A stretch of DNA of 64,000 nt from an uncultured Thermoplasmata archaeon (GTDB taxonomy: Archaea > Thermoplasmatota > Thermoplasmata > Halarchaeoplasmatales > Halarchaeoplasmataceae), in assembly GCA_964486225.1 (NCBI GenBank), contig CAZAMQ010000001.1:2660-66659 (forward strand), given 5' to 3'. The position numbers and the translations under genes were made by a program. Positions 1 through 19,236 of the stretch are shown in pieces. The first letter of the stretch is position 1. Each line of letters opens with the position of its first letter. The notes under the pieces are model-generated. The model made no database searches. It saw nothing but the letters and a program-made list of their open reading frames with translations, and was not told the DNA's origin.

Positions 1-26
1 GATACCTAAAGGCTTGGTTTCCGATA

Positions 27-1019
27 ATGGCATCCTTTAAAAAAAGAATAATTTATATCGATGGTTTTGCAGGACCAGGAATATATAGGGGTGGAGAGAA
101 CGGTTCCCCAATTATCGCATTAAATATTGTGAAGGATCATGTAATAGATATAAATTCTGAAGTTATCATGATATTTATAGAACAGGACGAAAGAAGATGT
201 TTAAAATTACAAAATGAAATTGATAAGATAGAGCTACCAGACAATGTAAAATACAAAATATATTGTGATACTTTTGAAAGCAAAATAACCGAGATATTAG
301 ATTATCTAGATCAACAAGAAAAAAGATTGGCACCTTCTTTTGTTTTTATAGATCCCTTTGGGTATTCACAAACACCTTTCTGCATAATTGAGAGAATTAT
401 GCAGTATCCTGGATGCGAATTCATGATAACCTTTATGTACGATTTTATAAACAGATTTATTGGTGAATCTGAGAAAGAGAAAACATTTAACGAATTATTC
501 GGAACGAACCAATGGACTGATATAGATAAAGAGGAAAACCCTGAAGGAAGGAAAAGATTTATACACGATTTATATTTAAAACAACTTAGAAGTAGAGGTC
601 GTGTTAAATATTTCAAATCTTTTGAGATGATAAATAAACACAACCATACAGAATATTTTTTGTTTTATGGAACGAAACATCTAAAAGGACTTGAAAAAAT
701 GAAAGAGGCTATGTGGGTAGTAGATTCTGTAGGGGGATACAGCTTTTCAGATAATACAGATCCTCTCCAAACTGTTCTTTTCGAGAAAGAACCAAATTAT
801 TCACAGTTGAAAAGGTTGATTATGAATAAGTTTAAAGGAAGACCGGTACGAATCGAAGAATTGGAAAAATTTGTTATAGAACAGACTCCCTTTTTAAAAA
901 AACATTTACGTAAGCCTATTTTGATTCCAATGGAAAAAGCAGATCCCCCCGAGATAACTGTATCTAATCGAAAACGAAAGGGTACATATCCTAAAGGTTG
1001 TAAAATCACATTCCTATGA
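27..1019 (+). CDS. Putative SAM-dependent methyltransferase-like protein. Motif I-like DGFAGPG lies near the N-terminus and a non-canonical DPFGY sits where an N6/N4-MTase motif IV (NPPY/DPPY) would be. Function unknown.
   Basis: Complete 330-aa ORF. IDGFAGPG at aa 12-19 matches the FxGxG SAM-binding loop. FIDPFGY about 90 aa downstream has gamma-class MTase spacing. Lysine-rich, AT-rich codon usage typical of the island. Confidence 0.4.
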   Translation: MASFKKRIIYIDGFAGPGIYRGGENGSPIIALNIVKDHVIDINSEVIMIFIEQDERRCLKLQNEIDKIELPDNVKYKIYCDTFESKITEILDYLDQQEKRLAPSFVFIDPFGYSQTPFCIIERIMQYPGCEFMITFMYDFINRFIGESEKEKTFNELFGTNQWTDIDKEENPEGRKRFIHDLYLKQLRSRGRVKYFKSFEMINKHNHTEYFLFYGTKHLKGLEKMKEAMWVVDSVGGYSFSDNTDPLQTVLFEKEPNYSQLKRLIMNKFKGRPVRIEELEKFVIEQTPFLKKHLRKPILIPMEKADPPEITVSNRKRKGTYPKGCKITFL

Positions 1020-1185
1020 TGTCACACAAAAGTAATAATAGTATCCTATCTGTAGTCATACAACTAGATAAGGGCGATTAAATGAGGGACGAGGATAAAG
1101 AAGCCCTTCTATTTTTAAGATCAGAAGGATTATCTGCACCGTAAAGGAATTTTTCACGAATTGGTGATTTTCCTATTTATATTGC

Positions 1186-3384
1186 CTAAAAATATCTACC
1201 GCGGCGTTCAGGAATATAATTATCGCTATCTCTATCAATTATTTTCCTTATTTTACCAATATATTCATTTTCTAGAGATTCTAGTTCATTACAATCTTTC
1301 ATGTTTTTACTTTCTTCAATAAATTCTTGTACTTTACCAAATATTTTTCCTTTCGTACTATGACTACCTAACAGGAAATGTTTATTTTCTGAAAATATTT
1401 TGAATAAATGAATTATAAATTCAATACTCATAAAAAGAAATTCATAATCAGAATTCTTAGTTACTCTCTCTCTTGCCTTTTTATTAAGACTTCCAGACCT
1501 AGAACCGTTCCGTAAAAGTTTTTTGCAAATAACCCAAATGATACTTTCACTTTTTATGAGTTTGCTATATTTTGATTCTTCAAGATCTTCTTTTGACTTA
1601 GAAAGTTCACTTTTAGGAATGTCCTTACGTTGTTTGGAATCAATTAAAAATATTTTATCATTAAGTTGAAGTGCACCATCAGTTTCATTAGCACCCCCTC
1701 CAGATAAATAATTGCCGAATAGATATCTCATCAATACATTAATGTGATCCTCGATCTCGTATCCTGCCCTCTTTTCATCCGCAAATCTTTCTCTAAATCC
1801 ATCTGGGTCGAAGTAATAATCCTCAAGTATCTTTATAGATCGACGAGATTCCTTTTCAACCATGAGTTGTTGATGATATTTAAACTGTCTTTGAGATGCT
1901 TTAACTATATATTCTATAACTTCTTCAGAACCTTTCGCTGTCAAAATTTTGTGATAATTCACTCGGGGTAAAATAACATTGTATATTTTATCGAATTTGT
2001 TGAACTGAGTTCTTGTAGCAAGGATGACTTTATAGAAACGCCGGTGTTCATCTGAAGGATCATCTGAATATGACTTAAGTATCAATGTTATTTTGTCTCC
2101 CAAACTTTTATCGTAATCTACTGATGTTATCCTATATTCCCTTCCTTCCAATTGTATATCACTCCTTTCTGAATTTTTCAAAATGTTATATATCTCCTCT
2201 GTTAGTTTATCTTTGTTTATATCTATAGATTCACCACCATTAACTTTCAGAATATCCTTTTCATAAAGAATTTCCAACCCTGATTCTTTAGACATTTCTT
2301 CTAGTGGTTGTAAATATTTAATTCTATAGTTAGAATTAGTGGTGAGAAGTTTATTTATGTAAAAGGAAGATGGTTTATAGTAAGGTTCATATACTTCAAT
2401 ATCATTTTTTTTCAGAATCGTTTCAATTTCATCTCTATATTTTTCGTATTCGTCTGGTAGTTCTAAAGCTATCTTTATGAATTCTTGATTTCCTTCAATT
2501 CTTTTGAATGTTTGAAAGTTCAATTTAAATTCTACATCTTCTTCTTTTTTAACATAAGTAAATGTACATTCATTTATTGACAATATATCCTGTTTATCGT
2601 GAAGGAGAAGATCATAATCTACGAAATCTTGTATATCGATAGGTGTTTCCTTTCCGGACGATACATTAAGAGAAATATCACAATTGTACGATGACAGTTT
2701 AATTTTCCTTAAAAAAATATCTTGGCTTTTCAAATTTGAAATGAAACTTGGTTTGATCTTCAATTCCTCATATTCTTCGGGTTCTTCGTCCTCAAGTTTT
2801 ATTGCGTCCATTTTTTCTGTATTACGTATAAATCTGCTTCTTTGGGTTTTGTTCCCAGATAAAAGTAATTGGTTATTGTCTTTATCTATTTCAATAAGTA
2901 AGGGCGGGTAAAATTCTATCTCTTCTGGTTTAAACATATCTGTATATTCTCTAGTTTTTATATGCCCCCCATATATTATTTTTGGATTTGTACCGTCTTT
3001 CAAAACTATATTGTTCCCCCTTCCTATATCCTCCAAAAAAGATTCAATATCAGTTGTTTCCTCAAACTTCTTAACATCATTTTTTCTAAAACCTTTTTTG
3101 AACCTAATTTTCAGTAAATCTTCGATGTATTGTCTAAAATTTTCCGCAGAATATGTTGGTTTATTTTCATTGAAAGATTCGGCGACTAGGTCAGAAATTC
3201 CATCCCAAAATTCCTCATTTTTCGTATCTACTTTCTCATATTTTCTTTGCAACTTTTGAATTGATGTATCATTTCTTTTGAAAACATTTTTTGCTGAAAT
3301 AAAGATTTTAGCATTTTTAGTGCAAAAGAGGAGAGGTAATATTCTATCTTTAAGATATTCTTTTTCTAACTGGTCTGGTTTCAT
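1186..3384 (-). CDS. Large orphan lysine/glutamate-rich protein (~733 aa from the MKPDQ start; the ORF extends to 3441). No recognisable catalytic motif (no P-loop). There is a possible weak D...EFK PD-(D/E)xK-like segment. It is the third gene of a coupled operon.
   Basis: Long uninterrupted ORF on the minus strand. The internal ATG at 3384 lies 1 nt after the stop of the upstream 93-aa gene (stop 3386-3388, ATG 3382-3384), implying translational coupling. I recognise no conserved family motif. Confidence 0.5.
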   Translation of the reverse strand: MKPDQLEKEYLKDRILPLLFCTKNAKIFISAKNVFKRNDTSIQKLQRKYEKVDTKNEEFWDGISDLVAESFNENKPTYSAENFRQYIEDLLKIRFKKGFRKNDVKKFEETTDIESFLEDIGRGNNIVLKDGTNPKIIYGGHIKTREYTDMFKPEEIEFYPPLLIEIDKDNNQLLLSGNKTQRSRFIRNTEKMDAIKLEDEEPEEYEELKIKPSFISNLKSQDIFLRKIKLSSYNCDISLNVSSGKETPIDIQDFVDYDLLLHDKQDILSINECTFTYVKKEEDVEFKLNFQTFKRIEGNQEFIKIALELPDEYEKYRDEIETILKKNDIEVYEPYYKPSSFYINKLLTTNSNYRIKYLQPLEEMSKESGLEILYEKDILKVNGGESIDINKDKLTEEIYNILKNSERSDIQLEGREYRITSVDYDKSLGDKITLILKSYSDDPSDEHRRFYKVILATRTQFNKFDKIYNVILPRVNYHKILTAKGSEEVIEYIVKASQRQFKYHQQLMVEKESRRSIKILEDYYFDPDGFRERFADEKRAGYEIEDHINVLMRYLFGNYLSGGGANETDGALQLNDKIFLIDSKQRKDIPKSELSKSKEDLEESKYSKLIKSESIIWVICKKLLRNGSRSGSLNKKARERVTKNSDYEFLFMSIEFIIHLFKIFSENKHFLLGSHSTKGKIFGKVQEFIEESKNMKDCNELESLENEYIGKIRKIIDRDSDNYIPERRGRYF

Positions 3385-3385
3385 G

Positions 3386-3667
3386 TTAACGCACCTCAAT
3401 ATATTCGTTAATTCTCTTCTTGGTTTCTGTGTACATCTCATTATAATTTTGTTGATCGTTAATTAGTATATGTCTATGACAGTATCCTCTTAAGTGTATC
3501 CTGTGGCGTTTCGGTATATCGCCTTTAACCATTTTCATAAAATTTAGAAATTCATTATTTCTGTTGTTGTTATACTCTATATGTTGTTTATAGATTTCAA
3601 ATAGTTGTTTTTCGTTGTCCTTGATTATTTGCTTTAACTGTTCATCATCTTCCCATATTTTTTCCAT
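3386..3667 (-). CDS. Small hypothetical protein (93 aa), the middle gene of the three-gene minus-strand operon.
   Basis: ORF flanked by 1-nt gaps to both neighbours: upstream stop at 3669-3671 versus ATG 3665-3667, downstream as above. Charged and lysine-rich, with no motif recognised. Confidence 0.4.
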   Translation of the reverse strand: MEKIWEDDEQLKQIIKDNEKQLFEIYKQHIEYNNNRNNEFLNFMKMVKGDIPKRHRIHLRGYCHRHILINDQQNYNEMYTETKKRINEYIEVR

Positions 3668-3668
3668 T

Positions 3669-4049
3669 TTAATCCCTCTTTATTTGGTTTTCCAAATTTT
3701 CTGTGTGTGTATCTAACTCTTCTGTTAAATTTATAATTTTTATAGCTATTTTTTGAGCTGTTTTATTTCTCATTCTTCTTGTAGTGTGTTGAACCGATCC
3801 TTCCTGAACTTTGCCAAAACGATCGATGACCGGATCTCGTTTATTTAAATCAGATTTAATTTCATCCCATCTATCTTGAAATTCGCGAGGAAAATCATCA
3901 CTATTAAGAACAAACAGGTCATTCAAATAAGCATCTCTGACTCTTTCTCGAACATTGCTTTCATTTGTGGCCAACGTATCACAAGCAAGATGCAATCTAC
4001 TTATCGTATACCTATATTTTTGAACCATTTCTTCTATTGTCATGTCCAT
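3669..4049 (-). CDS. Small hypothetical protein (126 aa), the first gene of the three-gene minus-strand operon.
   Basis: ORF with ATG at 4049 preceded by a long AT-rich non-coding leader (4050-4700). No motif recognised. Confidence 0.4.
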   Translation of the reverse strand: MDMTIEEMVQKYRYTISRLHLACDTLATNESNVRERVRDAYLNDLFVLNSDDFPREFQDRWDEIKSDLNKRDPVIDRFGKVQEGSVQHTTRRMRNKTAQKIAIKIINLTEELDTHTENLENQIKRD

Positions 4050-4807
4050 CTAATTTCATACGGTAATATAATTGATATATATTTAAAGTTGCCTAACTTT
4101 GGGACATTTGTAGCTAAGTTAATTTAAATAAATATGAAAAATGTAGTATTATGGTCAATCTACCCATTATTAGTATCGGAATTTACGTAATTGCGATTAT
4201 AGCTAAAATCTTCACATATTTACAAAATAAACGTTGGAAAGAAAAAATTCCGGCATATCAAATGTTTTTCGAAGTGAGTGTACCCCAAGGCTAAAGCCAT
4301 TGGGACATATTGAGATAACTTGTTCTCTCGAAAACAGGAACTATGTTCCAGTGGATTGAGGGAACTTGTTCCCTAAAGAGTTGTAATCAGGATTCCGACG
4401 TACTCTATTGTTGTCAGGCAAAGTCCTTTAGATATTTCAGGAAAATCGATTTATTTTCCTGATATCGAAGGAATTCTATGATAATTTCTATAGAGAAGTT
4501 TGAGGAGTTCTTGAAGATCGGTATAATCTTTTTGATATGGCGAGTGAATTACTCGGAATATCTATGTAGTGGTGAGATTGAAATACATATCCAATAGAAG
4601 TCCTGTATAGGAATCCAGCTATGATAGATGAGTTGGAGAAGGTTGTCCACTTCCTTCTAACGAGTACATCTACGATGTACGAGTGTGAAGAATTTTGATT
4701 CCATACAACCCAAACATAAAAGGTTGGGGAATTAGGGTTAAGGCAGGTTTATTAAATCATATTGTTTGGTATAATCATCTACATATTGTTCTAAATAACG
4801 GTTATTT

Positions 4808-5044
4808 CTATTTTCGCTTAAATTTACCTTCTATCCAGAAATCACCCGTATACGCATTTCCCCCCAATCTTATTTCCTCTAAATCCTCTTTGATCTCTTG
4901 TATTTTATCTTCTAATTTTTTATGTGGGGTAAAGAAAGGCTCGTTCTGTTCTGTGAAATCGACAATTATATCCTCCAAGGGTGTGAAAAAAAAAGTTTCA
5001 CTGTTCTTTTTGATCTTCTTTACCAGAGACATTTCATGTTGCAT
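4808..5044 (-). CDS. Possible small acidic protein (78 aa). Weak call.
   Basis: ORF with protein-like E/K-rich composition. The overlapping plus-strand ORF 4695-5054 has non-protein-like composition. Isolated in an otherwise non-coding AT-rich region. Confidence 0.2.
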   Translation of the reverse strand: MQHEMSLVKKIKKNSETFFFTPLEDIIVDFTEQNEPFFTPHKKLEDKIQEIKEDLEEIRLGGNAYTGDFWIEGKFKRK

Positions 5045-5130
5045 AGTATTGTAAACTCGGAAGGGTATTTATAAGTTACGGTTGTTACATAAAGAGAAGT
5101 TTTATATAGTTATACCCACATGGGAATAGT

Positions 5131-5487
5131 ATGTTAGAGTATGTATGTCTAAATTGTTGGCATAGTTTTAAACCAAGAGACGAAACTGTAAGCAGGAGGA
5201 AATGTTCAAACTGCAAAAGCAGTAGAGTAGTGGAATTAAAGACTTTAGCGAAAGCTCTAACAGGAGCAAAAGAATGGCTTGAAAAACAGAAAAAACCATT
5301 ACCTTTTTCTAGTGTATTGGTTGTTATCAGAGATTTTCCAACTATCCATAATATACTTAAAAATTCACCTTTCCCTAGGGGTATAGAAACTTTGAATCAA
5401 ATAATAGAATGGGCTAAAGATTGGGATAATGATCGTCTTTCAGCAAAGGAATATTTAATTTTAAAGTTAAGAGAAGTAAATCCATAA
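5131..5487 (+). CDS. Small Zn-ribbon protein (118 aa), the first gene of the RelA/SpoT-domain cassette.
   Basis: N-terminal CxxC-x19-CxxC (CLNCWHSF...CSNCKS) zinc-ribbon signature. Same strand as the next two genes, 128 bp upstream of the following gene. Confidence 0.5.
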   Translation: MLEYVCLNCWHSFKPRDETVSRRKCSNCKSSRVVELKTLAKALTGAKEWLEKQKKPLPFSSVLVVIRDFPTIHNILKNSPFPRGIETLNQIIEWAKDWDNDRLSAKEYLILKLREVNP

Positions 5488-5615
5488 CACATTATATATT
5501 GTTTGAGTATTTAAAATGGTTTTACAATGAAATTATAATTTGTTCATAACCTCCAATTTGAACATGTAAACTAGAATCACAGTAACACATATTAGGAAGT
5601 AATTGTATAAAGAGA

Positions 5616-7019
5616 GTGATAGTTATGAGTAAAGAGGGACCCCTGGATGTAAAAATAGAAAAAGCGATTAGAAAGTCATCTCCGTCAAAAAAATCTACCT
5701 TCGATTTGATTAATAATTTCCTTTCTAATCGAGATTTGAACATATTTTTTAATCATTTGTCAACAAATCAACATTATAAGCAATTGTTGTTCCTTCATCG
5801 TTACGATTTGTTTGATCTTGAGGATGAAATGTTACCTTTGTATTTTCACCTTTGCAGCTTATCGATGGGTGAAAGTGAATTGGCGACACAAATAGAAGAC
5901 CCAACTCTAGAATATGTGATATCGAAAGAGAGTGAAGCTATAAGCAACGGTATGGTTTTTTTACAAAATTTATTAGCTTTAGATGAAGGTCAATGGGATA
6001 TATTCTTGGAGGACATAATGGATGTGGTGGCTTATTTATCAATCTATTTTATCAGATATAATCAGAATATTAAAAATCTAGTTAATGCTGAAATATTTGA
6101 CTACGAGACTATGAAAGCCGTTTTAAAAAGTTACGAGAATACTATTAATTTCAGCTCATTTATTGAGGAAACGGTATCCGCATTAGAAACTGACCAAGAT
6201 GTAATAGATCCGATTATAAAAGAAAAAATATTTAAACTACTTACACAGGTCTTCTCGGGGTTCAGAAAAAACCTGAATCTTCTAATAGAAGATACTGATA
6301 AATTTTTACCAAATTTCAAATTAACTTATCATTTATCATCTAGTATATTGATAAAAAAACTTCTATCGCTATCGGGCCTATCCTTTAATGAATATACAAA
6401 ATTTCTTGATGAACTATATCGAAATCGTTTGATCGAAAATAAAAGTACGATATTTTGGTGTGAAAATTGTAGTCTTGAGAATCCATCTTATTCGGAACAT
6501 CATGGCAGAATCGCACCTTCAAAAATATCTCGAAATAACTGTTTGTATTGTAATCAACCACAATCTTATGCATCTATATTTTCGATAGATACAACTTTAA
6601 AGGAGGCTATACTTTCTAAGGATGGCCTTTTGTCTGTTTATCTCGGTTGGTTATTAAAAAAAGAGGGTATCAAGTTTGAAGTTGGTGGATATACCGCTAA
6701 ATTTGAAAATGATTTCGTTATCGATAATTCTATTCTGGTAGAGTGTAAGATGTTTAAATCCAACAAAGATCGAGTTGCGATACGTTCTAATTTGGATAGT
6801 TGTTTTTCTCAAATTAAAAAGCATATCAAACAGTTAGAAAAAGAGGGAACAAAAATACAAAGAGCATATCTTGTTTGGAATCGAAGAGAAACAGAAAAAG
6901 AAATCCAGAATAAACTGGAATCCAAATATATGGAATTGTTTAGAAAATATAGTTTAAAAATCATATGCCCAGATAAGATAGAAGAACTTGTTGAGGTGAT
7001 AAAATCCTATGATCGATAG
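5616..7019 (+). CDS. Zn-ribbon + PD-(D/E)xK nuclease-like protein (467 aa).
   Basis: Central CxxC-x25-CxxC (CENCS...CLYCN). The C-terminal segment GGYTAKFENDFVIDNSILVECKMFK gives a D-x(6)-E-C-K pattern (nt ~6711-6758), typical of restriction-endonuclease-fold nucleases. 47 bp upstream of the next gene. Confidence 0.55.
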   Translation: MIVMSKEGPLDVKIEKAIRKSSPSKKSTFDLINNFLSNRDLNIFFNHLSTNQHYKQLLFLHRYDLFDLEDEMLPLYFHLCSLSMGESELATQIEDPTLEYVISKESEAISNGMVFLQNLLALDEGQWDIFLEDIMDVVAYLSIYFIRYNQNIKNLVNAEIFDYETMKAVLKSYENTINFSSFIEETVSALETDQDVIDPIIKEKIFKLLTQVFSGFRKNLNLLIEDTDKFLPNFKLTYHLSSSILIKKLLSLSGLSFNEYTKFLDELYRNRLIENKSTIFWCENCSLENPSYSEHHGRIAPSKISRNNCLYCNQPQSYASIFSIDTTLKEAILSKDGLLSVYLGWLLKKEGIKFEVGGYTAKFENDFVIDNSILVECKMFKSNKDRVAIRSNLDSCFSQIKKHIKQLEKEGTKIQRAYLVWNRRETEKEIQNKLESKYMELFRKYSLKIICPDKIEELVEVIKSYDR

Positions 7020-7066
7020 GACTGTAATATATTATATCATTAACCCCCCTCAAAAGAGACATTGGG

Positions 7067-9973
7067 ATGTTGAAAATGAATGAAGAAGATTGCTTGAATG
7101 AATATGAAGATTTAAAGGATCTTTATACTGACTTCTCCATGGTAATTCGTACAATAATAGAGAACATTTTATACACAAATGACATAAATTATCAAGTTGT
7201 AACTAATAGGACGAAAAACGATGAATCTTTAAAACGCAAAGTTAAAGAAATCACCGACATTCACTCTGTAAGAGATATAGACGATCTAGCTGGTTGTAGA
7301 ATAATTTTCTATACGAACAAGGATACACAACGAATTGTTGGATATTTATGTGAAGAATTTGACGTTGTTAAAGAAAATTTAAAATATTCTGAAAAGAGTT
7401 ATAATGCTCTACATCTAGTTGTTAGATTAAAAGAAGATCGATTAAAGCTTTGTGAATACGAGATGTTTGATGGGCTTAAATGTGAAATTCAATTAACAAC
7501 AGTATTATTCCACGCATGGTCTGAGCTTGCACATGATTTAATCTATAAGCCTAAAGAAGATCTTTCTAAATTTGATGAACATGCATTTGATTCAATTGAA
7601 GCTCGATTTCGCAAGACAATGGGGGAACTAAAAAGGGTTCAAACGGATTTTGATTATATCATAAAGCAGTGGAAAGAAATTAGAAAAGGAAAAAAAATTT
7701 TTTCTGAAGAATTTCTATATGATCTGGAATCAGCAGGTTCTATTAATGATATTCAACAAAAGTTAAAACTCATTTTAGAACACGTTGAAAAATTTGGTGA
7801 TAAAACACCAAAAGAATTACAAATAATCGAAATAATTAACAACGCTCTAAAAAAATCAAAAACACTCAAAAAAGAACCTATCAAAACTCTTTTTGGTGAA
7901 CACCCAGGATTTGATTATTCCGATGTAGCTGATGTTAGTTTGGACATCTTCGATCGTTTGAAATATATTTATCCAAAAGATGTTTTTGATGAAATAAAAT
8001 GTTTATCTGTTGATTCAGAAGAAAAAGTTAAAAATAAAGCATTAGATGTTTCTTCAAAAATTGTTAAATATTCATTTGTACCAGAAAATGAAGCAATTTA
8101 CTATCATATCCAATCATTTGTCACCGAAGAAATTGAAAATTGGGACGATGAAACATTGCTTAGATATTTCAATCTAACAGTAAAGGTATCCGATGAGTTG
8201 CTTTCCCCTTCGTTTCACACTGTTTTGCCTAGTGGGTATGATAAAATTTCTTTATACCAAGGCCCACTACCTCCAAACGACACATTAATAAGAATAAGAG
8301 AAAGAACAATATGTATTCTTAAACGGCTATATACTATATCTGAAACTCTCTCGAACAAACACAAAGTTTTAAAGACGCTCAAAAAAGCAACCCTAACACC
8401 CAATGAAGAAGATTATTCGCCAGAATTAAAAAGGGTTATTTTGGATAATACAAATGATGTAATATCTTTTTACATATACCTTGTCGAAGATTCTGATAAT
8501 GAAATAATTCAGATTATTGAGCAACAATTGAACGGTTTTATAAAAAGATTTAAAGATGATTTGATATATTCGGATAAATTAAATGAAATGATTAGTAAAA
8601 ACGAGGATTATAAGGTACACAAAGTACTTGTGGGTTGGGATATTAACTACTTCAATGACTATCAATATGAAAAGGCAGAAATCGAGAGAAAACAAAAAAT
8701 TAATGAATATGTAACACAGATTAACGAAGAGTGTATTAATGATTGGGAAAATAAATTTTTATCTATTCTAAAAAATTACAATCAAGTTAACTCTCGAAGC
8801 GAATATCGGTATCTTAGATATTTCTTAGAAAATTTGGGTGAACAAAAACCTCGGATTGGGTTTGAACTAGCCTTAAAAATAGATTTTGAACTAGGACCTT
8901 TTTTGGACAGTCTAGTAACTGGTATTTGGAAAAGCCCCGAAAAGGATTTGGCTAAGGAATTATTGTCACGTTGGATAAAGGAAGGAAAGCATTTGTCAAC
9001 GTGTCCAAATGTATTCTCTCATACTCATGAAACCGACCTCACATTGTTATCTATGTGTTATGAAAAGGCGAAAGAGCAAAAAGATATTGATGTTATTATT
9101 GGTATCGTAATATGCATTTCAATAAACTATGACCAAAATCCAGACCATAAAACCATATTTATTAATTGCATCAAAGAACTAAATAAATATGGAAATTATA
9201 TATGGACAAATTGTTTTATCCACAATGATAATTCTATATTAAGAGACATTGACAAAATAGACCTAGATGTACTTTTAGAAAATTTCAAATATGCTCCGAG
9301 AATTGATCATGATTTGGAATTAATATTATCGGAATTTGCACACCAATATCCTGGAGAGATAATCGACTTTTTTTATGAAAGAATTAAAGTGCAAAGAGAA
9401 AAAGATGGAAATGATAGATATCATGCAATACCTTTTTCATTACATATTTTAAATGAATCCTTAAGTAAAAATCCTGTGAAAGTTATCGACGAAATTTTGA
9501 AATGGTTTGATATCGAAGATAGATTATTATGTATTGAATGGGCTAATTTAATTGAATTGATTTTCCCGGAGTTTCATCCTGAACTAGAAGATAAATTAAT
9601 CAAATTACTACGATCTAAAGATGATAAAATAGAGATTATTGTTTTGTGTATCTTACGCGCATATGATGGTCAAAAATTTTTACACGAAGTTTGTAAAGAG
9701 TTTATCAAGCAATGCCCTGAGAAAAAGGAGTATCAACAAGAAATGTTCTTAATACTTTCTGGAACAGTTGGTGGTTTTGGTGAATACGCAATTTGTGAAT
9801 CTTATAAAAAGAAAAGAAGAGAGATTCAGGAATGGAAAAAAGATGAAAATATCGCAATTCAAAAATTTGCTATACTGTATGATCGCTATTTATCTAGTAT
9901 GATAAACTACGAAAAAAAGAGAGTAGATGAAAGTGTTGAATTTATGAAAAGAGAATTTGAAACTCATGGCTGA
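7067..9973 (+). CDS. RelA/SpoT-domain (nucleotide pyrophosphokinase / alarmone-synthetase fold) protein. The synthetase-like domain is at aa ~28-165, followed by a ~800-aa alpha-helical C-terminal extension of unknown function.
   Basis: All three hallmark synthetase motifs are seen directly: RxKxxxSxxxK as R48-TKNDESLKRK-58, DxxGxR as DDLAGCRIIF (aa 72-81), and the EIQ(I/L)T...W(A/S)ExxH..YK block as CEIQLTTVLFHAWSELAHDLIYK (aa 139-161). No HD hydrolase, TGS or ACT regions are recognisable. Confidence 0.7.
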   Translation: MLKMNEEDCLNEYEDLKDLYTDFSMVIRTIIENILYTNDINYQVVTNRTKNDESLKRKVKEITDIHSVRDIDDLAGCRIIFYTNKDTQRIVGYLCEEFDVVKENLKYSEKSYNALHLVVRLKEDRLKLCEYEMFDGLKCEIQLTTVLFHAWSELAHDLIYKPKEDLSKFDEHAFDSIEARFRKTMGELKRVQTDFDYIIKQWKEIRKGKKIFSEEFLYDLESAGSINDIQQKLKLILEHVEKFGDKTPKELQIIEIINNALKKSKTLKKEPIKTLFGEHPGFDYSDVADVSLDIFDRLKYIYPKDVFDEIKCLSVDSEEKVKNKALDVSSKIVKYSFVPENEAIYYHIQSFVTEEIENWDDETLLRYFNLTVKVSDELLSPSFHTVLPSGYDKISLYQGPLPPNDTLIRIRERTICILKRLYTISETLSNKHKVLKTLKKATLTPNEEDYSPELKRVILDNTNDVISFYIYLVEDSDNEIIQIIEQQLNGFIKRFKDDLIYSDKLNEMISKNEDYKVHKVLVGWDINYFNDYQYEKAEIERKQKINEYVTQINEECINDWENKFLSILKNYNQVNSRSEYRYLRYFLENLGEQKPRIGFELALKIDFELGPFLDSLVTGIWKSPEKDLAKELLSRWIKEGKHLSTCPNVFSHTHETDLTLLSMCYEKAKEQKDIDVIIGIVICISINYDQNPDHKTIFINCIKELNKYGNYIWTNCFIHNDNSILRDIDKIDLDVLLENFKYAPRIDHDLELILSEFAHQYPGEIIDFFYERIKVQREKDGNDRYHAIPFSLHILNESLSKNPVKVIDEILKWFDIEDRLLCIEWANLIELIFPEFHPELEDKLIKLLRSKDDKIEIIVLCILRAYDGQKFLHEVCKEFIKQCPEKKEYQQEMFLILSGTVGGFGEYAICESYKKKRREIQEWKKDENIAIQKFAILYDRYLSSMINYEKKRVDESVEFMKREFETHG

Positions 9974-10047
9974 ATGATTGGAAATACGAGTGTTTAGATT
10001 AAGATATCGGATTATTAGAAGGTTATAACTAAATATACATCCTCTCC

Positions 10048-10743
10048 TCACTGTATGTTTTCCTTAACCCTCTCCCTCCGCTCCTCATTCGGAGGATGGA
10101 ACTGAACCCCTAGCATTTTCAAATACGCTCTTGCAACCCCCTTCTCGATCTTAAACCCCAACGCCTCCTTGTTCTCATCAGAAACCCGGGATAACGTCGT
10201 TTCGTAATCGATCCCATCGATGATCTCCAGTGCTTCATAGGCAACATCCCAGGGGTTTTTGATGTTGCAGGCCTCCTGCATCATCTTTGCGGCCCAGAGA
10301 TCGCATTTGTTTTCGATGTCCCAATTTCCCTTGTATGTGAACTTGGGGCTGATCAATGCTATGGCGGTGAAGATGATGAAGGCAGAGATGGGGTATATTC
10401 CGCTCATGTTCAATATGTACACGGGTACGTAATAAGAGATCACTGCTATCGTGAGGAAGAAGATGAGGAGGTTGAATAGAGCGTTCTTTTTCAGAGGATA
10501 TCTCGATAAGTGTGCTTCTTCGTGTAGTAGTGCGAAGGTGATGTGTTCTTTTTTTAGTTCCTTCAGATCGTTGAAATACGGGTTGTAAAGGATCGCACTG
10601 GTGCCGGCTTTGAATGACTTTGTTTTTAACGGTGCCTGGACCAGTTTTCTGTTTTTGTCGATCAGGTATCGTTTGTTTTTATCCGATGATGCTTCGGTGT
10701 TTTGAAGCTGTGTAAATATCTCTCTGATCCTATCGTTTTTCAT
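10048..10743 (-). CDS. Membrane-associated HExxH zinc-metallopeptidase-like protein (231 aa).
   Basis: LLHEEAHL motif followed by 2-3 hydrophobic helices. The gene is conspicuously GC-richer (~50 %) than the flanking AT-rich DNA. Confidence 0.45.
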   Translation of the reverse strand: MKNDRIREIFTQLQNTEASSDKNKRYLIDKNRKLVQAPLKTKSFKAGTSAILYNPYFNDLKELKKEHITFALLHEEAHLSRYPLKKNALFNLLIFFLTIAVISYYVPVYILNMSGIYPISAFIIFTAIALISPKFTYKGNWDIENKCDLWAAKMMQEACNIKNPWDVAYEALEIIDGIDYETTLSRVSDENKEALGFKIEKGVARAYLKMLGVQFHPPNEERRERVKENIQ

Positions 10744-10883
10744 GATATTGGGTGCCCCTATAGTTGGTTTCTTCTTGAAGATTATCTGATTATCCCTTTA
10801 AATTATTGTTGGTTATTGAAATAGAATTGAGGATTATTTTGTCGAAGGAAGTTTTTTAATACACTTAATCTAATCAGTAAACA

Positions 10884-11138
10884 ATGTCGCTTAAAGAAAG
10901 GATTAACAAAATACTTTTGGAAACAAAATATCCAATATATTGGATATCAATGTTTGTTATAATTTTAATGCTATCGATTTATATTGTGCACAATTTCAGA
11001 GATAATTGTTTTCTATTTTCTTCTATAATATTATTGTCTGCAGTTTACATTTATACATTTTGGTGTGAATCGAATGAAAATAGTTACTCGAACTATGCTT
11101 TAAGCCTAGGCACATTAATTATTATTCTCATTGTATAA
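10884..11138 (+). CDS. Small hydrophobic two-TM protein (84 aa). Hypothetical.
   Basis: ORF with two hydrophobic stretches. It ends 9 bp before the left inverted repeat of the IS element. Confidence 0.3.
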   Translation: MSLKERINKILLETKYPIYWISMFVIILMLSIYIVHNFRDNCFLFSSIILLSAVYIYTFWCESNENSYSNYALSLGTLIIILIV

Positions 11139-11146
11139 CCTAGAGA

Positions 11147-12220
11147 GATATGTCACCCCTCTATTGAGAAGGTAGAAGTATCTTCTCCAATTTAAGTGCT
11201 TTGACGAGCTTGTCAAACCATTTGAGATCTACCTCACCAGAATATTTATCCTCCGGACAAGTATCTATTGCCGAATGATGCTTTCCGTTATTGTACCAAT
11301 GGTTGTAAATTCGGATGAATTTATCGATCTTAGTTCTGTTCCTTGAATTACCAATGTGATGTCTAAGGAAACGCTTCAGACCTTTTTGATATGCACTTAG
11401 CTTTCCGAGTGTTTGTGGATGGTGTATACTAGACCATATATGCTTTTGATTGACGTATTCAGAACAGTATTTTCTCATCTCATTATTCTTTCTGTTGAAT
11501 TGTGTCCCATTATCAGTGAGAAGATTATCATACTTTGTTTTGATTAACTTTTTCATCCCCTGGATAACAGTCTTATCTTTTGCATCTCTTAAAGATACAG
11601 CCCATCCTTTTCTAGAATGGTCGTCTTCCATTGTTAGAAGGGAGACGCCATTAAATGAAGTCAGATCTGCCTGTATCAAACGGTTTGGATGTCCCCATTC
11701 AAACCGTTTCCAATCGTTTTGAACACGTCTCTCACGTTCGATCTCACCTTCTCTTACGAGGATATTGTAAGTAAGAGAGGGATATAGACGTTTAGTCATA
11801 CCAGCTCTTTGTAAACTTTGATTGACAATGTCTGATACTGGTTTTGGTCCAAAACCGGTAGCTTTCCTTACAGCTATGACTTTATCTTCGATTTCTTTGG
11901 GAGTTTTATTAGGTATTCTTTTTGGCCGTTTTGATTTAAAACGCAATCCTGCAATCCCTTCCTCCCGAAATCTCTTTAGAATCCTGTAAAATTGTCGAAG
12001 ACTTCGACCGATCATCTCAGATGCTTTTTTACGAGTGATTCCAAAAGGCTTAGGGACTAGTGTTTTCGCAACAGCTCCGTAACGTTCTTTCACATAGCTT
12101 GGCTCATCCTTGAGAACATCGATGTGTTCCCTATCCAAATATATACTTCCTCTTTCTATTATCATTTCGTGTCACCTCTTTGTTGGTGAGTTTATCATTC
12201 CGACAAAGGGGTGACACATC
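11147..12220 (-). mobile_element. IS481-family insertion sequence (~1.07 kb) with 14-bp imperfect terminal inverted repeats (GATATGTCACCCCT / AGGGGTGACACATC).
   Basis: IRs at 11147-11160 and 12207-12220 match 13 of 14 positions and bracket a single DDE transposase ORF. The termini begin with TGT, as in IS481/IS3-like elements. No target-site duplication is discernible. Confidence 0.75.
11161..12165 (-). CDS. IS481-family DDE transposase (rve integrase core).
   Basis: N-terminal HTH region. IQADLT resembles the WQxD first catalytic aspartate motif. TDNGTQF is the classic rve TDNG(x)EF motif. HPQTLGKLSAYQKGLK is the HPQTxGkxER motif. Length 334 aa. Confidence 0.85.
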   Translation of the reverse strand: MIIERGSIYLDREHIDVLKDEPSYVKERYGAVAKTLVPKPFGITRKKASEMIGRSLRQFYRILKRFREEGIAGLRFKSKRPKRIPNKTPKEIEDKVIAVRKATGFGPKPVSDIVNQSLQRAGMTKRLYPSLTYNILVREGEIERERRVQNDWKRFEWGHPNRLIQADLTSFNGVSLLTMEDDHSRKGWAVSLRDAKDKTVIQGMKKLIKTKYDNLLTDNGTQFNRKNNEMRKYCSEYVNQKHIWSSIHHPQTLGKLSAYQKGLKRFLRHHIGNSRNRTKIDKFIRIYNHWYNNGKHHSAIDTCPEDKYSGEVDLKWFDKLVKALKLEKILLPSQ

Positions 12221-12305
12221 TTAATGGTTTACACAAATTATTATTCTCATCATTATCTCAAGATTTATTTGGGATAGGGATTCTGCAATTAACATTAGTG
12301 TTGCT

Positions 12306-12701
12306 GTGGGGACAGTATCTGGGCCCGTGATGGCATACTTTGCATTTATGTTTTATGAAGAGACAAAAAGGGTAGAAAAAAAGGAGCGACAAAAAACCGA
12401 ATGGTATAGAAGATTACATATAATATTGAACAACAGAGAATTGAACAAATTGGTAGGAAATAAGGATATTGACTTAGCAGTGAATCAGGGAACTTATGAG
12501 AGATATGAAAAGATCATTGAGAACATGGAAAGATTATGGATAGATAAGCCAGAAACTATAGACGAAGAAATAGCGGAAAAAATTTTTAAGATTATATCCG
12601 AACTTCAAGATACAACGGCACCAGCTAGCATATCTTTTATCTGTGAACACATGCCCCAAAAAATTAAACAACTAAGAATGTTAGTAAAAAAACATATTTG
12701 A
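12306..12701 (+). CDS. Hypothetical protein (131 aa) with a hydrophobic N-terminus, directly upstream of the HEPN gene.
   Basis: ORF only. Same strand as the HEPN gene, 61 bp upstream of it. Confidence 0.35.
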   Translation: MGTVSGPVMAYFAFMFYEETKRVEKKERQKTEWYRRLHIILNNRELNKLVGNKDIDLAVNQGTYERYEKIIENMERLWIDKPETIDEEIAEKIFKIISELQDTTAPASISFICEHMPQKIKQLRMLVKKHI

Positions 12702-12762
12702 TTGATAAGATTGAATTTAATTTCAGAAAAATACTTAAACAAATATTCCACTCGAAGTAAAC

Positions 12763-14112
12763 ATGGATTACACCGAGTATAAAGGTAAATGGTGGCTCCC
12801 AGGTAAAGAGTATAATAAGATATTTGGAACATTGAAATTCTACCCAAATGATCGTTTGGAACTTGAAGTTAATGGTATTTTTGAATCACTACCTTTTGGT
12901 CGGCTGATTGAATTCACCCAGTATGATTTCATTTATGGGGAAGATTACAATGGTAAAAAAATTACATTATTTAAAAATAGAGAAACGTATAGAAGTAAAG
13001 ATATTGAATCCCGATATTTAGTTGTATATGCATTCATAGGACATCACTTTGTTAATGAAAAAGAAATATCTTTCGATGAGATAGAAATCAATTTTCATAA
13101 TCTTAAAGAATGGTTTGGTTTGTCAGGAATTGGTTATGAATATGATGATGTAAGTTTTGCCTATCGATATACCGAGCAAGACATTATTAAAAATAATATT
13201 GATGGCGAATATGAGTTGAATTTTATTTTCGGCTGTCCTTGTGAAATGAAAGGTACAGGTCCTACAGAGATATATTTAAAGGATGAATGTTCTCTAGAAA
13301 TTAAGAAACATTTCGAAAAATCTCTTGATCGATATTTTGAAATAATAGAAATGCTCAAAGTATTTTTTTCTTTATCGATGCAATTACCTATTTATATGAC
13401 TAACATGAATGGAGTGGTTAGCGACGAAGGACCCTGTTGTAATATTTTATTTGGAGATATCCGAGATGAAAAAGATTTACAAAAAGTTCATAAATTCCAA
13501 ATGCCATTAATTTATGATAGAATCTCAGAAGAATTTGAAGGTGTTTTAAAAAACCTTCACAGATCCTACCATAAATTTGAAAACATGTTTAATTTGTACC
13601 ATGGCATAATATACAATCAAAATATGTTTCCAAGACAAGAATTTTTATTTTTGGTTAATGCATTAGAATCATATCATCGTTTGTGGCTAAAAGACAAATA
13701 CATCTCTGATGAAGATTTTAAAAATAAAGTTTACAATAAGTTAGTTGACGCGATACCGGATGATATCCCTGTAGATTTGAAAAATAGTTTGAAGTCAAGG
13801 TTACAATATCACAATGAATACTCCCTCAAGAAAAGATTGGATGAAGTTTTTGAAAGGTTTATAGAACCTATTGATTTTATAATAGAGAATCGAGATGATT
13901 TTACAAACAGAGTCAAAAATATGCGAAATTATTATTCACATTATTTTGAACTTGAAGAAGAAATAACCTTTGAAGAATTAAATAATATTAAAGAAAAATT
14001 GAAAACCATCGTAGAAATTTGTATCCTTGGGGAAATAGATGTAGATCTGGCAAACGATTTGGAAATAGTTGATAAATTATACAAAAATAAAAGAAAATTC
14101 ATAAGTTTTTGA
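12763..14112 (+). CDS. HEPN-domain protein of the Abi_2 (AbiD/AbiF) / ApeA-like abortive-infection type (449 aa).
   Basis: C-terminal MRNYYSHYF (nt 13921-13947) matches the Rx4-6H HEPN signature in its RNxxxH form, which is characteristic of Abi_2. Large alpha-helical protein inside an AT-rich accessory island. Confidence 0.55.
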   Translation: MDYTEYKGKWWLPGKEYNKIFGTLKFYPNDRLELEVNGIFESLPFGRLIEFTQYDFIYGEDYNGKKITLFKNRETYRSKDIESRYLVVYAFIGHHFVNEKEISFDEIEINFHNLKEWFGLSGIGYEYDDVSFAYRYTEQDIIKNNIDGEYELNFIFGCPCEMKGTGPTEIYLKDECSLEIKKHFEKSLDRYFEIIEMLKVFFSLSMQLPIYMTNMNGVVSDEGPCCNILFGDIRDEKDLQKVHKFQMPLIYDRISEEFEGVLKNLHRSYHKFENMFNLYHGIIYNQNMFPRQEFLFLVNALESYHRLWLKDKYISDEDFKNKVYNKLVDAIPDDIPVDLKNSLKSRLQYHNEYSLKKRLDEVFERFIEPIDFIIENRDDFTNRVKNMRNYYSHYFELEEEITFEELNNIKEKLKTIVEICILGEIDVDLANDLEIVDKLYKNKRKFISF

Positions 14113-14343
14113 TTAGTCCTTGAACAACTTTGAAATCACAAGTTACCTTTGTTGGAAAATATTCCAATATATTATCACCAAATTTGATCCCTATGGCTTG
14201 CAGTAACAAAGTCGTAGTAATGATGCCTTATAAACAAGCTTGAAGACCCGTGATCTCATTGAATTTTAGTACTTTTCAGTTTTGTAATCTATATACGATT
14301 GCATCTATTAAAACAAGGATTAAAAGTTCATGAAAATGAGATA

Positions 14344-14823
14344 TTATTTAATCAAACTTAACAATGATTTATATCTTTTAGTATACATAGATAATAAAGT
14401 CATACTCCAGATTTCAACAAATATAGTGGAAAAGAATAATCCGAATAAATGATGCCACTCGGAATCAATTAACATCAACTTAGATGGACTCTTTACAACA
14501 TTATATACTAATATAAACATGTACAGACCTATTAATCCATTAAAAAATTTCATGGGTAATGGGTAACCCTTTAAAAAATCAAAATCTCCTTCACTTTGAT
14601 CAGCATCTTTATCATTATTTGTTTTTCTTCTAGCCCTTTCAAGGTCTGAATATGATAGAGAAATACCAAGTGGAACAGAGATTATTACTACTTGATGGAA
14701 AAAGGAAATGTTAAATCCCAAAAATTGGGTTGGAAGATATAAACTCAGCAATATCACCGTATACCAAAATAACCTTTTCTTTATCAGCAGAGATTCTAAC
14801 ATTTCATCATCAAATATCTTCAC
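14344..14823 (-). CDS. Hypothetical integral membrane protein (159 aa, ~4 TM helices).
   Basis: ORF with four hydrophobic segments. No motif recognised. Confidence 0.4.
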   Translation of the reverse strand: MKIFDDEMLESLLIKKRLFWYTVILLSLYLPTQFLGFNISFFHQVVIISVPLGISLSYSDLERARRKTNNDKDADQSEGDFDFLKGYPLPMKFFNGLIGLYMFILVYNVVKSPSKLMLIDSEWHHLFGLFFSTIFVEIWSMTLLSMYTKRYKSLLSLIK

Positions 14824-15004
14824 GGTATTAAAAATTTAGGACTTATTGACGAATTTATTATTTTTTTATTGGTAATAATTTACAATGCCCAAATTATAAT
14901 AAGATGACAAATTGCAATAAAGAAAATATGAGATTTGAAGAAAGGAAGGAAAATGGTGAAGTAACACATGTGGAAGGAAAAGACACTTTCTAAACTCCTC
15001 TTAA

Positions 15005-15130
15005 AACCATCTTAAAAAAAGTTAAAAACACGTTAAAAAACATCTTAAACCAACCTTGAAGTACACTTAAAACACGTTCAAAAACATCTTAAAATATCCT
15101 TTAAATCACTCTAAATTTCGCTTAAATCAA
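15005..15130. repeat. Degenerate tandem repeats built on a CTTAAA core. They include two copies of AAAACACGTT(A/C)AAAAACATCTTAAA (15024-15048 and 15068-15092, period 44 bp).
   Basis: Direct reading: at least 7 CTTAAA/CTTAAAA motifs and a 25-bp imperfect direct repeat within 125 bp of non-coding AT-rich DNA. Confidence 0.6.
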
Positions 15131-15563
15131 ACCACTTATGAGATCGGTGAATATCTTTAAAATTGTGAATACGCTGGGAAAGCAACGCTTTAAAACTCCA
15201 CCCAACCTCCACATCTTCGCAAAAGTCAGCAGATGCCTGCCGAATTTCACACGCAAATTTCGGCAGTTCCACACCTCATCCAGTGATCCATAATCGCCGA
15301 ATATCTCCAAAAAGAGCAAGATCAGACGCTCTTACATTCTTTTTGTGCAATCTTTTCAGAAAACTAAAAGTTTTCTAAACGATATCGGGAACGAGTTCCC
15401 GAAATAAAGTCGGCAGTTTTCACAAGAGTTATCGCAAAAGTCGGCAGGTGAATATTTCGGGAATCAAATTCCCGATATCGAAGGAATTTTTCTCAAAATT
15501 CCTGTAGATCACGTGCAAAAGGTAGCAGTTAGCAGCCACCTTTCATAACTCGTTTGAGAGGTA

Positions 15564-15978: not shown

Positions 15979-16914
15979 ATGAAAGTAAGACTCAATGCAC
16001 TTCAGATCGAGATAATGCAGTGCTTGATGAAGAGGGAATACGGAACCCTTAAACAGATATCGCTGGAGCTCGATAAGAGCCAATCCAGGATATCCTCTGT
16101 TGTTAGTGACCTGGAAAATAAGGGATTGGTCGATCTTGAAAAAAAGGGTCTTTCCAAAAAAATTTCCGTTGCAAACAGTAAACACGCATCTATTCTAAAA
16201 AAACTCTTTGCTATGCATCCAGTGGATTTCGAAAACTGCCTGTCAGGATCCGCCCTCGAAGTTCTTCAGCCGATCACTGAAGATGAACTAAGCCGCTCCG
16301 AAGTTTCCAAAAGGTGTGGTTATTCCGAAAGAACGGTGTCCAGGGTTTTTGATCGGATGAGAGAGAGAGGTATGATCGTTGAGGAAAGTGGTCTTTACAG
16401 CATCAATCCCAGATACGCTGCATTATCGGAGTTCATATCGGAATTTCAGTCGTATCTAAACGTTAAAAGATCTCGTTCTTTTTCTCCAACATCCACCATG
16501 ATATGGGAGAGAGGAAAAGAATTTATGGTAGAGACAAGAGAGACGAATGAAGAAGATTATTTTCTTACGGGATATGATAGATTAGCCGACTTCGGTGTAC
16601 CCCTGATAACCACAGGATCACGGTATTACTTTTATACCGAGATGAAAGACGAACTTGTGTTGGAAGATGTGTGCTTACATACACTAATACCCGATATTAG
16701 CAGTACCAGAAACCTCCTTTACGTATTACTGGCGATAGGAAAGAACAGAGTGAATTGGAGTTATCTGAAAATAGAATCTGTAAAATACGGGCTTGAGGAT
16801 ACTGCTGCGGCCCTAAAAGAGTACATGGATAGCCGTGGAAAGAAAAAAGCAAAGTATTTTCCTCCATGGGAAGAATATAAAACCAAGGCCAGGGAGTACG
16901 AGATAGATGTATAG
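15979..16914 (+). CDS. Transcriptional regulator with tandem winged-helix (MarR/Lrp-like) domains and an uncharacterised C-terminal domain (311 aa).
   Basis: Two HTH-like segments (LKQISLELDKSQSRISSVVSDLENKGLV and RSEVSKRCGYSERTVSRVFDRMRERGMIV). Overlaps the downstream gene by 8 nt. Confidence 0.55.
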   Translation: MKVRLNALQIEIMQCLMKREYGTLKQISLELDKSQSRISSVVSDLENKGLVDLEKKGLSKKISVANSKHASILKKLFAMHPVDFENCLSGSALEVLQPITEDELSRSEVSKRCGYSERTVSRVFDRMRERGMIVEESGLYSINPRYAALSEFISEFQSYLNVKRSRSFSPTSTMIWERGKEFMVETRETNEEDYFLTGYDRLADFGVPLITTGSRYYFYTEMKDELVLEDVCLHTLIPDISSTRNLLYVLLAIGKNRVNWSYLKIESVKYGLEDTAAALKEYMDSRGKKKAKYFPPWEEYKTKAREYEIDV

Positions 16915-17275
16915 GAAAACCTTTGGAATAGACTATATGGAACGGGAATTGGAGCGGTTAGGTGAAGCTCTTGATAGTGATGTAAAAATATATCTGATCG
17001 GTGGTGGGCGTATGCTGTATAGAGATGCAAAAGCAGCCACCAAAGATGTTGATATGGTTGTAACTGATCCATCATACTTGACATCGTTATCTTCCGGACT
17101 CAAGAAGCTAGGTTATGGCGAGATCAAAGAACTGCCGGTCGATTATAGAAGCTTGGGTGCATCAATTATTATGAAAAATGAAGACGGATTCCAGTTCGAT
17201 GTATTTTACAAAAAGGTGTGCAACAATCTATCGGTCGGTGAGAGGATGGTGACTTTGCTCCCATTTTCTCCATAA
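16907..17275 (+). CDS. Minimal nucleotidyltransferase (Pol-beta superfamily / MNT-like) protein (122 aa).
   Basis: IYLIGGGRMLYRDAKAATKDVDMVV matches the G[GS]-x9-13-DxD NTase signature. Translationally coupled to the upstream regulator. Confidence 0.5.
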   Translation: MYRKTFGIDYMERELERLGEALDSDVKIYLIGGGRMLYRDAKAATKDVDMVVTDPSYLTSLSSGLKKLGYGEIKELPVDYRSLGASIIMKNEDGFQFDVFYKKVCNNLSVGERMVTLLPFSP

Positions 17276-17502
17276 ACTTCCATCTCGAAAGGTGGATCTC
17301 CATATATATAAGAATACTCGTCTTCTGGAACTGAATACACCACGTTCAAATAAGTGGTAGGGGTACTCTGAGGATCACCCGCAGAAAATTCATTACTCCG
17401 AACCTCTATTTTAACAGTTAGTGCACCTTTTATCTCTTCCGATTGGGAAAGGTTTATGTATTGGGCGCACAATTATTGTATAGACAATAAAGGAGAACGA
17501 AC

Positions 17503-18891: not shown

Positions 18892-18896
18892 TTATT

Positions 18897-19184
18897 CTAT
18901 CCAAAGGAGTCATCGGCTTGGATTGTTCTTTCTCTATATAGTCCACCAGTTCCTCTTCGATCACGCCTTTCAAAGATATTCCAGATGGATCCGTCTTCTT
19001 GTATGGCCTTCTCCAATATCTCTGTAAAATAGAATTCGGGATGATCGAAACCCCACCCGCAAGCGAAGGATTCCTCCCATTCAAAACCAGGCGAATCATG
19101 AAAATTCGCTAGGTATTCCAGGGCCTCGATGGGTATGCTTTCGACGCCTTCGTTATGTCTGGGTGAACTATAAGAATATATCAA
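18897..19184 (-). CDS. Possible small acidic protein (95 aa). Weak call.
   Basis: ORF only, with reasonable composition. Divergent from the fic gene. Confidence 0.2.
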   Translation of the reverse strand: MIYSYSSPRHNEGVESIPIEALEYLANFHDSPGFEWEESFACGWGFDHPEFYFTEILEKAIQEDGSIWNIFERRDRRGTGGLYRERTIQADDSFG

Positions 19185-19236
19185 TTATCGATGTGTAATC
19201 AGATAACTATTTATAGGAAATATGACTAAATTCTAA

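Follow-up and report, generated by a model that had tools for sequence, protein, structure and literature searches.

A FokI-type nuclease fold in a rare protein family encoded in an archaeal defense island and recurrently embedded in type I restriction-modification operons

This work concerns a three-gene operon in a 64-kb stretch of DNA from an uncultured Thermoplasmata archaeon (contig CAZAMQ010000001.1, positions 2,660 to 66,659; the whole stretch is called the window here, and all coordinates refer to it). The operon lies on the minus strand and comprises genes A, B, and C. The C-terminal domain of the protein encoded by C, the last and largest of the three, shows in a predicted structure a FokI-type nuclease fold with an invariant catalytic triad. 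We propose, with a rough probability of 0.55, that C is a stand-alone, methylase-less defense endonuclease, most likely modification dependent (Type IV-like), and that A and B are its modulators. Since the trio is not conserved, its organization as an operon is less important than the C family itself, and this family, in which a FokI-type cutter appears to be joined to a new sensing region and which is repeatedly embedded in type I restriction-modification (R-M) operons, is the main object of interest.

The FokI-type domain and the N-terminal region of C

AlphaFold modeled residues 537 to 720 of C with confidence, and the order of elements there is helix, three strands, helix, strand. As modeled, this is the alpha-beta-beta-beta-alpha-beta core of restriction endonucleases, and its nearest counterparts are FokI and BspD6I. 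A Foldseek search with the C-terminal domain returned 2p14 with a probability of 0.99. When the profile of the domain was aligned with the FokI cleavage domain by hhalign (the FokI sequence in the alignment matches 1fok/2fok), a probability of 87% (P = 4e-6) was obtained, and D569, D582, and K584 of C were placed on D450, D467, and K469 of FokI. Across 29 sequences of the C family, among which identity falls to ~20%, there are only seven invariant columns; D569, D582, and K584 are three of them, which argues for a working active site, and judging from sequence C is predicted to be an active nuclease. Five of the 29 relatives also match Pfam family PF09254, weakly (best E value, 1.7e-4). A first-pass annotation, made from the DNA sequence, had found no assignable motif in any of the three proteins. 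This description still fits A and B, for which there is no family, PDB relative, or recognizable motif, but not C, which carries the invariant D...D-S-K nuclease motif.

The region that precedes the nuclease domain is also well folded in prediction. Residues 1 to 530, modeled alone with the 29 sequences, gave a pLDDT (predicted local distance difference test) score of 85.6 and a pTM (predicted template modeling) score of 0.77. The model contains a helical bundle and several alpha+beta modules of TBP-like or KA1-like topology, a helix-helix-helix-strand-strand unit at residues 339 to 389, and a linker helix of 38 residues. Profile-profile comparison found no internal repeats in the N-terminal region, and no known reader of modified bases (SRA, EVE/PUA, YTH, DpnI-type winged helix, SBD, or iEndoIII) was recognized in C.

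A large N-terminal region, a linker, and a C-terminal FokI-type domain together make up the architecture of FokI and N.BspD6I. Formally, C could therefore belong to a classical type IIS R-M system, in which it would cut an unmodified site at a distance while a methylase, either TcmP or another, shields the host; the methyltransferase-like gene of the window (tcmP) is indeed convergent with C. We regard this reading as very improbable. C lacks the winged-helix modules with which FokI and N.BspD6I recognize their sequences, and in particular the triple winged-helix domain, and the similarity of its cleavage domain to that of the FokI/BspD6I type IIS enzymes (PF09254) lies below the Pfam threshold. 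Moreover, no cognate methyltransferase was found beside the nuclease, and TcmP is not conserved with C.

The C family is very rare, yet, by the sequence evidence, it is real and old. A search of 5.8 billion proteins returned 15 clusters of close relatives, every one full length and 45 to 57% identical to C; named members come from Halorubrum vacuolatum and Haloarcula nitratireducens, and a Pfam domain was present in none of the 15 clusters. A profile search of 1.84 billion representatives yielded 34 clusters, 22 of them with E values below 1e-30, and the distant full-length members are 20 to 28% identical to C. The notion of C as an orphan, held in the first-pass annotation, is thus superseded. 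Family members are spread over haloarchaea, one further archaeon, and AT-rich uncultured organisms; among GTDB species representatives, Halorubrum vacuolatum was the sole yield. C was absent from the viral contigs, phage records, and plasmids that were searched, and only noise was obtained with C in the Pfam, NCBIfam, PADLOC, and PHROGs libraries. With PADLOC, none of A, B, and C had a match at E ≤ 0.1, and the 29 C relatives had no consistent match. PDB sequence searches with C profiles gave nothing significant. In the literature, we found no description of the family, and searches for FokI-like defense nucleases gave analogues only.

Genes A and B and the coupling of the operon

The three genes had been described in the first-pass annotation as tightly coupled, with 1 nucleotide (nt) between stop and ATG, and this was confirmed: the A/B junction is GAT-TAA-A-ATG and the B/C junction is CGT-TAA-C-ATG, so that both read TAA-N-ATG with a stop-to-start spacing of 1 nt. 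The sizes given for the small proteins, 126 and 93 amino acids (aa), were likewise correct, while the large protein, put at ~733 aa, has 732. An alternative reading of C from ATG 3441 would give 751 aa and overlap B. It was dropped in favor of ATG 3384, the position matched by the N termini of all 14 full-length C relatives (M-K/R-x-x-Q-x-E-K), and the 732-aa form is supported for the same reason. With ~8% of codons being stops, as expected at 30% GC, a stretch of 93 codons would stay open by chance with a probability of 4e-4, one of 126 with 3e-5, and one of 732 with 4e-27. These odds, together with a ratio of nonsynonymous to synonymous substitution rates (dN/dS) of ~0.34 between A and its one relative and with conservation of the N terminus of B (both described below), establish that A, B, and C are real genes that form one translationally coupled operon. 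The AT richness of the cassette and the K/E/D-rich composition of the large protein, both noted earlier, also held, with 29 to 33% GC in the three genes and 30% K+E+D in C. A TATA-box-like element, TTTAAATA, may serve as the archaeal promoter from which the operon is transcribed.

Very little resembles A or B. Both gave only noise in Pfam, NCBIfam, PADLOC, and PHROGs, and PDB sequence searches returned no match for either. Among the 5.8 billion proteins, A has a single relative (P0017, 70% identity), and B, a protein rich in His, Asn, and Lys (H55, H57, C63, H64, and H66), has none but itself. The relative of A is encoded on L011 (ENA ERZ27301263, k141_19273), an 836-bp sequence that holds a divergent upstream gene, A, and 25 codons of B before the contig ends; the first 20 to 25 residues of B are conserved there directly downstream of A, and B begins at a GTG that overlaps the A stop codon. 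A was absent from the viral contigs searched, and A-B DNA was absent from the plasmids searched. Divergent from A, the window contains a membrane-protein gene remnant, whose counterpart on L011 is open over at least 103 aa and has the same placement relative to A. The ~1 kb that lies between A and the next gene (4050-5130) is otherwise without a convincing open reading frame (ORF).

To compare contexts, 28 loci were fetched, including L004, which is the window's own duplicate, and L011. By tblastn, A and B matched only in L004 and L011, that is, in 0 of the 26 other loci with a C relative, and the trio therefore cannot be upheld as a conserved unit. Nor do other small genes take the place of A and B. 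Those coupled to C elsewhere show no relationship to A or B, nor, for the most part, to one another; for example, the C neighbor in L023 (138 aa) has a weak winged-helix match, and that in L025 has 171 aa. When the small neighbors of C were compared across loci, the only shared partner was one found in L020 (333-884) and L021 (10208-10750). These two proteins, of 180 to 183 aa, are 72% identical and contain an RNNLFH motif (Rx4H, HEPN-like), and the gene lies upstream of C at one locus and downstream at the other, within type I R-M operons.

These comparisons bear on the possibility that the operon is an addiction module akin to a toxin-antitoxin system, in which C would be a toxic nuclease, A and/or B would be labile inhibitors, and the island would be stabilized as a result. 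The tight translational coupling with the small genes first would suit such a module, as would the carriage of the C family on integrative and conjugative elements and the lack of any other detectable role for A and B. However, a type II toxin-antitoxin system is expected to have a constant antitoxin partner, whereas in 26 loci C occurs without A or B and, in nearly all of them, without any conserved small partner. Because C stands alone at nearly all of these loci, it cannot be intrinsically lethal in the absence of A and B, and we consider an addiction module improbable. Most likely, A and B are lineage-specific modulators of C (regulators or inhibitors) rather than core parts of the system.

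Genomic contexts of C relatives and the proposed function

The haloarchaeal loci present C as a solitary gene. It lies directly after a tyrosine integrase gene in L005 and L007/L008 and is convergent with one in L010, and in L001 insertion sequences lie between C and the integrase. The integrases of these loci are orthologous (333 to 336 aa, 43 to 77% identity). An Rpb2-like gene and one of ~404 aa are also common to L001 and L005, and the four loci resemble one integrative-element family in which C is the first cargo gene. Further solitary C genes were found in L003, with a type I R-M system and an OLD-family gene nearby, and in L009, near conjugation genes; in L026 and L027, C lies in unannotated DNA. 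The adjoining integrases and the one locus beside conjugation genes could mean that C serves the mobile element, working with the integrase in transfer, excision, or exclusion of competitors rather than in antiviral defense. This seems quite improbable to us, as the R-M-embedded loci have no integrase and none lies near C in the window, and defense genes commonly occupy the first cargo position next to an integrase.

The AT-rich metagenomic relatives of C lie within type I R-M operons. Their arrangement is hsdM-C-hsdS-gmrSD-hsdR in L014/L015 and hsdM-C-(180 aa)-hsdS-...-hsdR in L021, and C is followed by hsdS in L020, L016, and L012, the last of which encodes the closest relative of the window protein (57% identity). 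Linkage to hsd genes is thus seen in L012, L014 to L016, L020, and L021 but not in the window or in about ten other loci. The embedded relatives belong to three deep branches with ≤28% identity between them, which implies that the association with hsdM and hsdS is either old or recurrent; because HsdR is present in these operons, C does not replace it. Other defense genes recur nearby. Mrr, OLD, and type I R-M genes are among the neighbors of C relatives, two relatives adjoin a CAP12/Pycsar-type TIR protein, and a Schlafen/AlbA_2 protein is also found. No methylase adjoins C in the haloarchaeal loci, and the type I HsdM is the only one in the embedded loci. C is, in short, a predicted nuclease that sits in a defense context without a companion methylase, as Type IV enzymes of that kind do.

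The main rival to our proposal arises from the embedded loci and casts C as a guard or backup nuclease tied to a type I R-M system, in the manner of PrrC and Ronin. Binding of HsdM/HsdS would keep C silent, and when a phage antirestriction protein (e.g., a DNA mimic) blocked the type I enzyme, C would be released and abortive infection would follow. PrrC and Ronin have established this principle (10.1101/2023.04.06.535777); their genes, like those of the embedded C relatives, are lodged among or linked to hsdM and hsdS. C relatives of all three deep branches lie exactly between these two genes, and the junctions there often overlap or span 1 nt. On the other hand, at least ten loci, including the window, carry C without adjacent hsd genes, and no hsdM, hsdS, or hsdR is found anywhere in the 64 kb; nor does the window contain gmrSD or a related integrase. 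In this respect, C differs from PrrC, which is almost exclusively embedded (10.1101/2024.01.29.577857). The retention of HsdR in operons with an embedded C also speaks against a guard. We therefore judge a guard function to be unlikely, though it is the alternative that we take most seriously. The proteins themselves are of different kinds: PrrC is an anticodon RNase that carries an ABC ATPase head, RonA has 61 aa and is a membrane protein, and C is a predicted DNA nuclease.

The stand-alone, Type IV-like enzyme that we favor would act as follows. The N-terminal ~485 residues of C would select the target, the linker helix would connect them to the FokI-type domain, and this domain would cut through D569, D582, and K584. 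Judging from FokI, it would probably have to pair with a second copy of itself in order to cut both strands near the place where the N-terminal region is bound. C would serve as an autonomous second-line defense nuclease directed at DNA unlike that of the host, most simply at modified DNA of an invader, and A and B, translated together with C, would modulate it. The absence of a methyltransferase of its own, combined with lodging either between hsdM and hsdS or beside an integrase, is what suggests the autonomous second-line role. Moreover, a nuclease without a methylase must spare the host chromosome, and the simplest way to do so would be to recognize a feature found only in foreign DNA, with base modification as the simplest case. 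Nuclease activity, dimerization, the nature of the target, the role in defense, and the roles of A and B are what we infer from these observations, and specific cutting of modified DNA is suggested by analogy with other systems.

Several such systems lend plausibility to this proposal, although C departs from each of them. Embedding in defense operons is a validated predictor of defense function (10.1101/2024.01.29.577857), and a type IV system, the GmrSD-like, modification-dependent TgvAB, is embedded in a type I R-M operon of Vibrio cholerae (PMC11411939). C relatives share this position inside type I R-M operons, and one shares its operon with GmrSD itself. TgvAB and GmrSD are, however, DUF262/DUF1524 proteins unrelated to the FokI-type C, and modification dependence, demonstrated for TgvAB, would in C be conjectural. 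A closer parallel in organization is the END nuclease, which is methylase-less and type IIS-like and targets hypermodified phage DNA (PMC12191111). Like C, END-PaCF1 is a single gene in a defense island beside type I R-M, both proteins combine modular sensor and cleavage domains, and PADLOC recognized neither. The modules themselves differ, in that END pairs a PLD (BfiI-type) nuclease with an inactivated EndoIII/Ogg1 sensor, whereas C pairs a FokI-type PD-(D/E)xK domain with an unrelated N-terminal region. In MspJI and AspBHI the reader differs as well: MspJI has an SRA-like reader of ~200 aa, whereas the corresponding region of C has ~485 aa and no SRA fold, and the catalytic domain of C is of the FokI type, not the MspJI type.

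Other observations weigh against this proposal. The C family, known from sequence and predicted structure, is missing from PADLOC-DB v2. C of the window gave no match to PF09254 at E ≤ 1 and so falls below the gathering threshold, for which reason C is to be regarded as a distant relative of PF09254 and not as a Pfam-defined member. The constant position between hsdM and hsdS could mean a functional tie to the type I methylase. As for A and B, their role as modulators is conjectural, and the contig of their only other joint occurrence, L011, is too short to reveal any C that might follow.

A more specific version, which we offer tentatively and think rather doubtful as a whole, is that TBP-like modules in the N-terminal region read modified or non-self DNA for the FokI-type cutter, that type I operons have repeatedly taken up the resulting single-protein, methylase-less enzyme as an additional layer, and that A and B restrain it in this lineage. 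If true, control of such an enzyme by two dedicated small proteins would be a mode that has not been described before. Should C be active, it would represent a new family of single-gene defense nucleases missed by Pfam, NCBIfam, and PADLOC-DB v2 and would help to show how embedded genes benefit the type I R-M operons that house them. Branches with only ~25% identity to one another carry repeated insertions of C between hsdM and hsdS, which makes the family a clear example of "guilt by embedding." Engineered nucleases have been built on FokI domains, and epigenome mapping makes use of modification-dependent cutters; a FokI-type cutter joined to a well-folded candidate DNA-sensing region may thus be of practical interest.

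The defense island and the remainder of the window

The operon lies in the first ~15 kb of the window (1-15500), where GC content is ~30%, compared with ~49% in the remainder. The setting is in keeping with the antiphage association suspected in the first-pass annotation, since the AT-rich stretch also carries defense candidates, namely, TcmP/PDC-M30A, the RelA/SpoT-like PDC-S33 protein, ApeA-HEPN/PDC-S58, and an IS481 transposase (Table 1). This low-GC stretch is a horizontally acquired defense island in the archaeon.

Table 1. Coordinates of the operon, of parts of C, and of neighboring features in the window
Feature	Position	Strand	Description
Gene A	4049..3669	minus	ORF, 126 aa; first in operon; no family assignment
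Gene B	3667..3386	minus	ORF, 93 aa; start 1 nt past A stop
Gene C	3384..1186	minus	ORF, 732 aa; start 1 nt past B stop; putative defense-island endonuclease of an unannotated family, from sequence
N-terminal region of C (residues 1-485)	1930..3384	minus	Presumed target-sensing part
Long linker helix to nuclease domain (C residues 486-531)	1792..1929	minus	From secondary structure in both models
FokI-type PD-(D/E)xK cleavage domain (C residues 537-720)	1225..1776	minus	From model and profile alignment
Predicted catalytic codons	D569, 1678-1680; D582, 1639-1641; K584, 1633-1635	minus	Within 1633..1680
TATA-box-like element TTTAAATA	4080..4087	minus	38 nt upstream of A ATG; from sequence
Membrane-protein gene remnant	4151..4294	plus	47 codons; divergent from A
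TcmP gene	27..1019	plus	TIGR04474 (E = 6e-57), PADLOC PDC-M30A (E = 3e-66), Pfam GMT-wHTH; methyltransferase fold
RelA/SpoT-like protein (PDC-S33)	7067-9973	plus	968 aa
M48-like membrane peptidase	10048-10743		
IS481 transposase	11161-12165		
ApeA HEPN (PDC-S58)	12763-14112		

TcmP, on which there is almost no literature, is convergent with C across a gap of 166 nt. In the PADLOC candidate system PDC-M30, the TcmP-like component A corresponds to this gene, but neither A, B, nor C matched the models of the partner components. TcmP was also considered as a conserved partner of C and was rejected, as tblastn found none in the 28 fetched loci. Of the methyltransferase-like neighbor that the first-pass annotation described, the convergent gene itself thus stands, but a conserved link to C does not. 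Since that link is lacking and the trio has no PADLOC partner match, the evidence does not bear out a cassette of a modification gene plus effectors; what survives of the earlier restriction or antiphage cassette is that the large protein is of the restriction endonuclease type, while the conserved trio and the pairing with a methyltransferase fall away. No stop interrupts the TcmP ORF before the left edge of the window, and the TIGR04474 profile is left unmatched over its first ~28 positions, so that the true start of the gene and any upstream partner may lie outside the window.

Farther into the island, the plus-strand interval 5131-9973 encodes a 118-aa zinc-ribbon protein, a 467-aa protein, and the 968-aa RelA/SpoT protein and may be a separate defense system. 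The 467-aa protein has a CxxC...CxxC ribbon, and its stretch VIDNSILVECK resembles a PD-(D/E)xK motif, a candidate picked out by eye. A 20-nt direct repeat, TTCC(T/C)GATATCGAAGGAATT, occurs at 4456-4475 and 15469-15488 (19 of 20 positions identical), with the second copy at the island's GC-content boundary. The repeats may represent the att-like ends of an ~11-kb insertion to which the trio does not belong, or they could be due to chance. The window contains no tRNA gene or Rfam family that would mark an integration site.

Just past the island, 15979-20124 holds a gene for an HVO_2833-like double winged-helix regulator, a 122-aa ORF, a DUF234 archaeal ATPase gene, and a 295-aa ORF that, as read from its translation, is a Fic-like candidate. 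The rest of the window is of a housekeeping type and includes genes for a LonB-type protease, an Lhr helicase, aldehyde and indolepyruvate ferredoxin oxidoreductases, and a DUF234 archaeal ATPase.

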